A stretch of 64,000 bases of DNA from a virus: the IMG/VR virus record IMGVR_UViG_3300027712_001108, positions 32,001-96,000 of that record; one strand, given 5' to 3'. Shown here piece by piece: positions 52,131 to 52,348 of this stretch. A program made the translations under genes and the position numbers. Every line of letters starts with the position of its first letter. Position 1 is the first letter of the stretch. The notes under the pieces are model-generated. The model was not told the DNA's origin and ran no database searches. It saw only the letters and a program-made list of their open reading frames with translations.

Positions 52131-52348
52131 AAGTATCAGGCGGTTGGCTTAGAAGCAGCCATCCTTTGAAGAGTGGAACCAAGCACCATTGGACGCCAAA
52201 GAACCTGTATCGGGCTGCAAACGATTGCAAGTGGTGTAGGAGATTGCTATATGGAAAAATGCGGATAGTAACAGAGTCCCCAGTGACTACAAAGTAGTGC
52301 AACTGTACGGCAACTGTTTTCCTTTGGCGTAGCAGCACACTGATACTT
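52131..52348 (+). ncRNA. 23S rRNA H43-H44 (L11-binding) mimic with ~150-nt insert
   Basis: GTTGGCTTAGAAGCAGCCATC...GAAGAGT and GCGTAGCAGCACACTGA, closed by AAGTATCAG/CTGATACTT. Confidence 0.8.

Follow-up and report, generated by a model that had tools for sequence, protein, structure and literature searches.

A family of phage non-coding RNAs resembling the GTPase-associated centre of 23S rRNA, with an intact member in a viral tRNA array

In Escherichia coli 23S rRNA, nucleotides 1051-1108 (the top of H42 together with H43 and H44) constitute the 58-nt domain that binds uL11 and thiostrepton and contacts the translation GTPases, known as the GTPase-associated centre (GAC). Stable cellular RNAs such as 6S RNA, a mimic of the open promoter, and CsrB titrate a protein by imitating its nucleic-acid ligand. 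Besides, the mRNA leaders of ribosomal proteins (e.g. the L10 leader) mimic rRNA binding sites outside the ribosome (survey PMC3616713). As for viruses, none of the 10,006 candidate viral RNAs of one survey is reported to overlap predicted rRNA (PMC10690425), and we found no description of a phage rRNA or GAC mimic in the searchable literature. Here, we report on a 218-nt non-coding RNA at positions 52131-52348 (plus strand) of a 64-kb stretch of viral DNA (the whole stretch that was analysed, hereafter "the window"), which is part of a record of 157,923 bp estimated to be ~30% complete. It belongs, as an intact member, to a large family of non-coding RNAs in phages, one for which no description was found in Rfam 15 or the searchable literature, and it probably imitates the ribosomal GAC off the ribosome. 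Membership in a known Rfam family was rejected, as Rfam 15 returned nothing for the element save a local LSU match below threshold.

The letters and coordinates that the initial annotation had given for the element agree with the sequence, and all of its parts lie on the plus strand. It is bounded by a closing stem, the strands of which, AAGUAUCAG (52131-52139) and CUGAUACUU (52340-52348, then GUUUUAAA), form nine Watson-Crick pairs, just as the perfect 9-bp stem had originally been described; this stem replaces the top of H42 (E. coli ~1047-1055). Within it, and in E. coli numbering, local alignment to the Rfam LSU model places G1056 and H43 (1057-1081) with its loop UUAGAAGCA at 52140-52165. 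H43 proper occupies 52141-52165, with U1060 at 52144 and A1067 at 52151, and G1056.A1103 corresponds to 52140/52339. There follow, at 52166-52174, the 1082-1086 mini-hairpin (52166-52170; U1082:A1086) and G1087-A1088-G1089-U1090 (52171-52174). A family-specific insert of 152 nt (52175-52326) then separates 1090 from 1091, and the rRNA-like sequence resumes at 52327-52339 with the H44 hairpin G1091-C1100 (GCGUAGCAGC; 52327-52336, A1095 at 52331), A1101, C1102, which pairs with G1087, and A1103.

The element thereby reproduces E. coli 1053-1106 (H43, the 1082-1086 mini-hairpin and H44) near-consensus, its departures from the family consensus being a C1057.U1081 mismatch and a G instead of an A at 1084. 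Nucleotides of the tertiary core (U1060-A1088, G1071/C1072 with the H44 stem, and A1077) are all present by sequence identity. The bacterial LSU model of Rfam aligned 52139-52186 to model positions 1096-1145 with a sub-threshold score of 18 bits (E 0.0015 when 401 nt were searched), and the loops of both helices (UUAGAAGCA in H43, GUAGCA in H44) are the same as those of Salmonella 23S rRNA. Both results uphold the match to 23S H43-H44 that had been noticed at the outset. By calculation, chance would yield ~2e-6 exact copies of an 18-mer such as GGCUUAGAAGCAGCCAUC in 64 kb. Neither the 64-kb window nor the 157,923-bp record as a whole showed any further LSU-like sequence, and the split layout recurs across the family, in keeping with the initial assessment that there is no other rRNA around the element and that it is not a simple rRNA fragment. 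Folding energy lends the whole element weak support, with a z of -1.34 relative to shuffles.

Searches of cultured phages with blastn recovered this 5' half from unrelated phages, where it lies in gaps of the annotation, and these gaps share one layout: closing stem, GAC 5' half, an insert of 110-330 nt, CCUUUGGCGUAxxAGCACAC and the second strand of the closing stem. Pattern scans of IMG/VR yielded >200 loci among the matches listed. A covariance model (R1) was derived from 41 members, among them the window element; this seed sequence scored 112.7 bits across the full model. With R1, the split architecture comprising both halves was found in >190 IMG/VR phage contigs. The two halves travel together, since R1 matches were obtained in loci fetched by either half alone, namely 98 full-length matches in 100 loci fetched with the 3' half and 93 matches in 94 loci fetched with the 5' half; homologs thus keep both halves. 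Among cultured phages, R1 confirmed its presence in pf16, UNO-G1W1, Milchi, Aeromonas 4_4572, XacN1, GAP32, CBB and Serratia BF. As for the window member, it carries the marks of the family: a stem of its own, the GAC core, a helix after U1090 followed by UUUG, and an A at 1101.

Across the genomes of 185,579 bacterial and archaeal species, only 45 matches to the 3' motif turned up, near chance expectation by our estimate, and ~22 of these were full R1 matches, mostly on MAG contigs and in some Clostridia isolates. By these low counts, the family is in essence a phage trait, and the full matches in bacterial genomes are probably phage or prophage DNA. Some contigs (L099, L173 and L243) have two copies of the element each. 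In GenBank, small "hypothetical protein" CDSs are annotated across the element in several phages, mostly on the opposite strand (UNO-G1W1 CDS0126 at 1568-1675 of locus L001, Milchi CDS0161 at 1528-1659 of locus L006, and Erwinia phage Kaldavass H43). These CDSs are probably spurious, and the family can serve to flag such annotations in phage records.

Covariation was assessed in a MAFFT alignment (A1) and in 86 distinct sequences of an independent set (A3), the latter fitted to the model and hence leaning towards its structure. In A1, the proposed structure was 89% paired, and the covariation score was 0.591 as compared with 0.155 for shuffles, none of 500 of which scored as high. A3 scored 0.515 against 0.145 for shuffles, with compensatory changes at 20 of the 25 pairs. 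Slid controls scored 0.10-0.21 for A1 and 0.06-0.21 overall. Ten of the 11 pairs of the closing stem covary in the family; this stem, taking the place of H42, is a covarying helix without conserved sequence.

Compensatory changes extend into the GAC core (1057:1081, 1058:1080, 1064:1074 and 1082:1086), the last of these pairs being UA in 37, CG in 25, AU in 12 and GC in 2 of the 86 distinct members. The family maintains the GAC pairs 1057-1059:1079-1081, 1062-1064:1074-1076, 1082:1086, 1087:1102 and 1091-1092:1099-1100, the C1057.U1081 mismatch being the only one in the window element. Conservation approaches 100% at U1060, G1071, C1072, A1077, A1088, G1091:C1100, C1092:G1099, G1093, U1094 and A1098. 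G1087, A1088, G1089 and U1090 show little or no variation, H43 hardly any in its upper stem and loop, while positions 1061 and 1097 vary freely. At 1067, 68 of 81 members have the A, and at 1095, ~10 of 78 depart from it, meaning that both are kept in ~85-90% but are somewhat relaxed relative to the fold core. At 1101, nearly all members have an A where rRNA has a U. The element does not follow host-specific rRNA letters in the case compared: enterobacterial jumbo phages have GAGU at 1087-1090, as opposed to GAAA in the host.

The insert had been described as ~150 nt long and structured. Its length holds (152 nt), and so does structure at its base, where GGAA (52175-52178) pairs with UUCC (52319-52322) in a helix that covaries at four of four pairs in A1 and three of four in A3; the interior, on the other hand, is variable, and the insert folded alone was no more stable than shuffles (z +0.31). 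The linker UUUG (52323-52326) then leads into H44. It was found in 40 of the 54 members read in the set fetched by the 5' half, the others having UUUA, CUUG or further variants. The 3' part of the insert (~52270-52315) is a variant of a CACCC-hairpin-GUAAGG module that occurs in 25 of 83 members (~30%) and shows compensatory changes in two short helices. Close relatives of the window insert were absent from cultured phages, and in IMG/VR two 17-mer matches were due to chance and one further pattern gave no match.

Across the family, the arm between 1090 and 1091 is hypervariable in both length (~25 to >300 nt) and sequence, while identity to rRNA is retained in the GAC core. In the compact members (107-110 nt), the insert is cut down to a plain hairpin, and as nothing but the core and this hairpin is kept, the GAC core is regarded as the constant working part. 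When inserts were compared with the rest of 23S rRNA, nothing but chance-level 9-13-mers emerged, save for three cases in which the insert contains a copy of the sarcin-ricin loop. These three, out of ~160 members, are long (~390-430 nt; L114:2362-2754, L163:3681-4074 and L201:8568-8998), and the hairpins in their inserts read AGUACGAGAGGAA, AGUACGGGAGGAA or AGUACGAAAGGA. A hairpin of this AGUACGAGAGGA type is absent from the window insert.

The element lies inside an array of 31 tRNA genes, all on the plus strand, that spans 33.9-63.5 kb of the window; the nearest one, tRNA-His, starts 289 nt downstream of the element end. This setting is widespread in the family: around 140 elements, the fetched loci contained 887 tRNAs on the strand of the element and 2 on the opposite strand, with the distance between element and tRNA being within 50 nt in 56 and within 300 nt in 80 cases. 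For GAP32, CBB and Serratia BF, 3-kb stretches surrounding the element were fetched, and these contain no annotated tRNA.

Immediately upstream in the window, an ORF of 171 aa (51615-52130, plus strand) encodes a HAD_SAK_2 phosphatase domain of RNA-repair proteins (PF18143, E 1.6e-15), and its stop codon abuts the element. A consensus scan found no promoter-like site between the two, and from this arrangement the transcript of the HAD_SAK_2 ORF probably provides the RNA as its 3' end. Directly after the element, a promoter-like TTGACA-17 nt-TATAAC (52360-52388, plus strand) was read directly from the sequence, having been missed by the consensus scan on account of its last base, C; the unit behind it consists of a small membrane protein followed by tRNA-His, tRNA-Trp and tRNA-Met. 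In XacN1, a 2'-5' RNA ligase occupies the position that matches the HAD_SAK_2 ORF of the window, and such adjacency is not conserved across the family. More generally, no conserved protein neighbour of the element was found, the largest same-strand blastp cluster comprising 6 of ~140 loci. A dedicated protein partner encoded beside the element was rejected on these grounds, HAD_SAK_2 being particular to the phage of the window. No ribosomal protein genes were found near the element, nor were phage-encoded uL11, bL12 or RelA/SpoT found in the ~30% complete record.

The same array accommodates a GOLLD RNA (RF02032; 60012-60465, plus strand, 217 bits) 8 kb downstream of the element, and a tRNA-Arg(TCT) at 60077-60147 is embedded in the variable region of this GOLLD copy. 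At 52964-53090 (plus strand) there is a 127-nt tRNA-like gene that was not called by ARAGORN; its acceptor, D and T arms are complete (45 bits), with ~55 extra nt in the anticodon loop, and it may be an intron-bearing tRNA. A weak match to the Y-RNA-like YrlA (36611-36714, plus strand; 27 bits as compared with a gathering score of 69) lies between tRNA genes. Also interspersed among the tRNA genes (40985-42463, 44766-45851, 56809-57978, 54094-54771, 50146-51135 and 44231-44560) are three radical-SAM proteins (one B12-binding, one SPASM), a methyltransferase, a PstS-like phosphate-binding protein and a low-affinity iron permease, and HNH endonucleases are located within the array at 55015-55461 and 62665-63147.

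What might a phage gain from such an RNA? The reading that we rank first, with a rough probability of 45%, is that of a stable GAC decoy whose leading candidate target is host uL11. The element would be transcribed along with the tRNA array, in the window as the last part of the HAD-phosphatase mRNA, and might be released as a stable RNA by tRNA-maturation enzymes, a notion consistent with the position of the elements amid tRNA genes on the same strand. The free RNA could then capture something that normally recognizes the GAC, above all host uL11 via its C-terminal domain, and titration of uL11 would leave ribosomes poor in this protein. Genetics of rplK/relC have established that uL11-poor ribosomes translate yet cannot activate RelA, and the infected cell might accordingly remain in the "relaxed" state as the phage employs its own set of tRNAs. 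That the RNA would act with parts of the host rather than of the phage is in line with the lack of a conserved neighbour protein and of uL11, bL12 and RelA in the record.

The initial annotation had proposed a decoy or scaffold for uL11, L10-L12 or translation factors, perhaps dampening the stringent response. Among these, uL11 is favoured over L10 or factors because the copy is limited to the 1051-1108 domain and the replacement of H42 has no conserved sequence, and over factors also because the fold core is invariant and the adenines relevant to factors and thiopeptides, A1067 and A1095, are relaxed. L10-L12 binding is the least supported part of that proposal, given that the stem in place of H42 is a plain covarying helix. 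There are also observations that speak against a uL11 decoy. Depleting tens of thousands of ribosomes would demand very high RNA levels as well as exchange of uL11, and A1067 and A1095, relaxed as they may be, are still conserved in ~85-90% of members. The absence of annotated tRNAs around the element, in the stretches fetched from GAP32, CBB and Serratia BF, is a further point against it. Finally, uL11 does not bind the sarcin-ricin loop, and the copies of this loop in three members point to factors or toxins instead.

Toxins are at the heart of the reading that we rank second, a serious rival though one of low probability. Ribosomes might be spared if a free copy of the GAC were offered to an effector of the host or of a competitor that inactivates them at this very site, be it an ADP-ribosyltransferase, nuclease, glycosidase or thiopeptide. 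Comparable is the role proposed for phage tRNAs, which would compensate for tRNA-cleaving defences, and the element sits inside tRNA arrays. The sarcin-ricin loop, the classic target of ribotoxins, is copied as well by some members, and a universal target would suit the wide host range of the family. To our knowledge, however, no anti-phage system targets the GAC, and a stoichiometric decoy must outnumber the ribosomes. RNA-repair-type genes do lie directly upstream of the element in the window (HAD_SAK_2) and in XacN1 (2'-5' RNA ligase), yet these neighbours are not conserved across loci. Tre23 is a toxin for precisely the H44 site, ADP-ribosylating exactly nucleotides 1095-1098 (PMC8661411), but what was demonstrated is its activity on ribosomes. 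As loci of anti-defence, tRNA arrays have been discussed in two studies (PMC12803027, PMC13096335).

The variable arm is the starting point of a third reading, to which we assign a still lower probability. Here, the GAC fold would be a stable module unrelated to mimicry, an RNA or RNP scaffold that carries the arm for the sake of, e.g., a phage protein encoded elsewhere or tRNA maturation. An extra arm is indeed found at the same site in every member, the ~30% that share the conserved arm module show compensatory changes therein, and GOLLD is another large RNA of unknown role in the same array. Compact members, on the other hand, have reduced the arm to a plain hairpin, and the combination of a hypervariable arm with an rRNA-like core makes little sense unless something reads the rRNA-like surface itself.

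It is doubtful, and in our ranking a little less probable again, that the RNA acts as a mimic of the factor-binding site that, alone or together with uL11, binds EF-G, EF-Tu, IF2, RF3, RelA or another ribosome-dependent enzyme and thereby sequesters or misactivates it. Retention of A1067 and A1095 in most members would fit, as would the three long members in which the GAC is joined to a sarcin-ricin-loop hairpin, i.e. to the other half of the factor site. However, this second half is confined to 3 of ~160 members and missing from the window, the two adenines are less conserved than the fold core, and we know of no evidence that isolated GAC RNA holds factors without the rest of the ribosome.

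That the element lacks a function altogether, being a 23S fragment that was captured or is decaying, a chimera of the assembly or a portion of a protein-coding gene, is very improbable: although contiguous 23S pieces do exist in some "phage" records, ORFs on both strands overlap the element and some GenBank phages annotate small CDSs there, the insertion point, the closing stem and U1101A are common to hundreds of unrelated phages, with compensatory changes, and the record is devoid of other rRNA sequence. A coding region was rejected, as an insert of variable length rules out a conserved reading frame. Contamination with, or capture of, rRNA was likewise rejected in view of the lack of other LSU sequence in window and record, the shared insertion point and the covariation, and true contiguous 23S rRNA looks different. 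An example of the latter is Paenibacillus phage Pd_22F (L005), in which an unannotated stretch near the record end (~83.4-84.0 kb) is ordinary contiguous 23S rRNA without the split element, possibly host DNA or an assembly chimera.

Leaving the precise target aside, we consider the odds to lie slightly on the side of a countermeasure at the factor-binding site, in which this portable GAC copy of large phages (accompanied by the sarcin-ricin loop in some lineages) would either steal uL11 and thus disarm the sensor of the stringent response, or absorb a still-unknown class of immune effectors directed at this site in rRNA. Either variant, if true, would constitute the first virus-encoded decoy of an rRNA domain. 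A decoy would imply that phages manipulate translation, or its surveillance, through imitation of rRNA, a layer of phage-host conflict that we did not find in Rfam 15 or the searchable literature. The family would then also represent a natural, compact and evolution-tested variant set of the uL11/thiostrepton domain, with hundreds of sequences from which the positions free to vary can be read. The element is present in laboratory phages such as pf16, UNO-G1W1, GAP32 and CBB, which makes the question accessible to direct testing.

Among the known systems, GOLLD RNA shares with the element its niche and strand in the tRNA regions of phages, but has no rRNA-like part and no relation to it in sequence or structure. 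The proposed mode of action resembles that of 6S RNA and CsrB, which are cellular rather than viral, have other targets and are unrelated in sequence. With the leaders of ribosomal protein mRNAs, the phage RNA has in common the imitation, off the ribosome, of a ribosomal protein's rRNA site. Those leaders, however, are cis-acting 5' regions of cellular ribosomal protein operons with partial mimicry, whereas the phage RNA is proposed to act in trans, is located in tRNA arrays with no ribosomal protein gene nearby and is nearly identical to an entire rRNA domain; the Rfam leader families (L10_leader and others) did not match the window element even at E up to 10. The GAC of 23S rRNA and the phage RNA both have the H43 loop UUAGAAGCA, the H44 loop GCGUARNAGC, the 1082-1086 hairpin, G1056.A1103, G1087:C1102 and the tertiary core, with the same covarying pairs and the same freedom at 1061 and 1097. 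They differ in that the rRNA continues into H42 and Kt-42, while the phage RNA is free-standing and closed by a covarying stem of its own, and in that A1067 and A1095 are not strictly invariant in the phage RNAs. Only the phage RNA, moreover, has a helix between 1090 and 1091, followed by UUUG, and an A in place of U1101.
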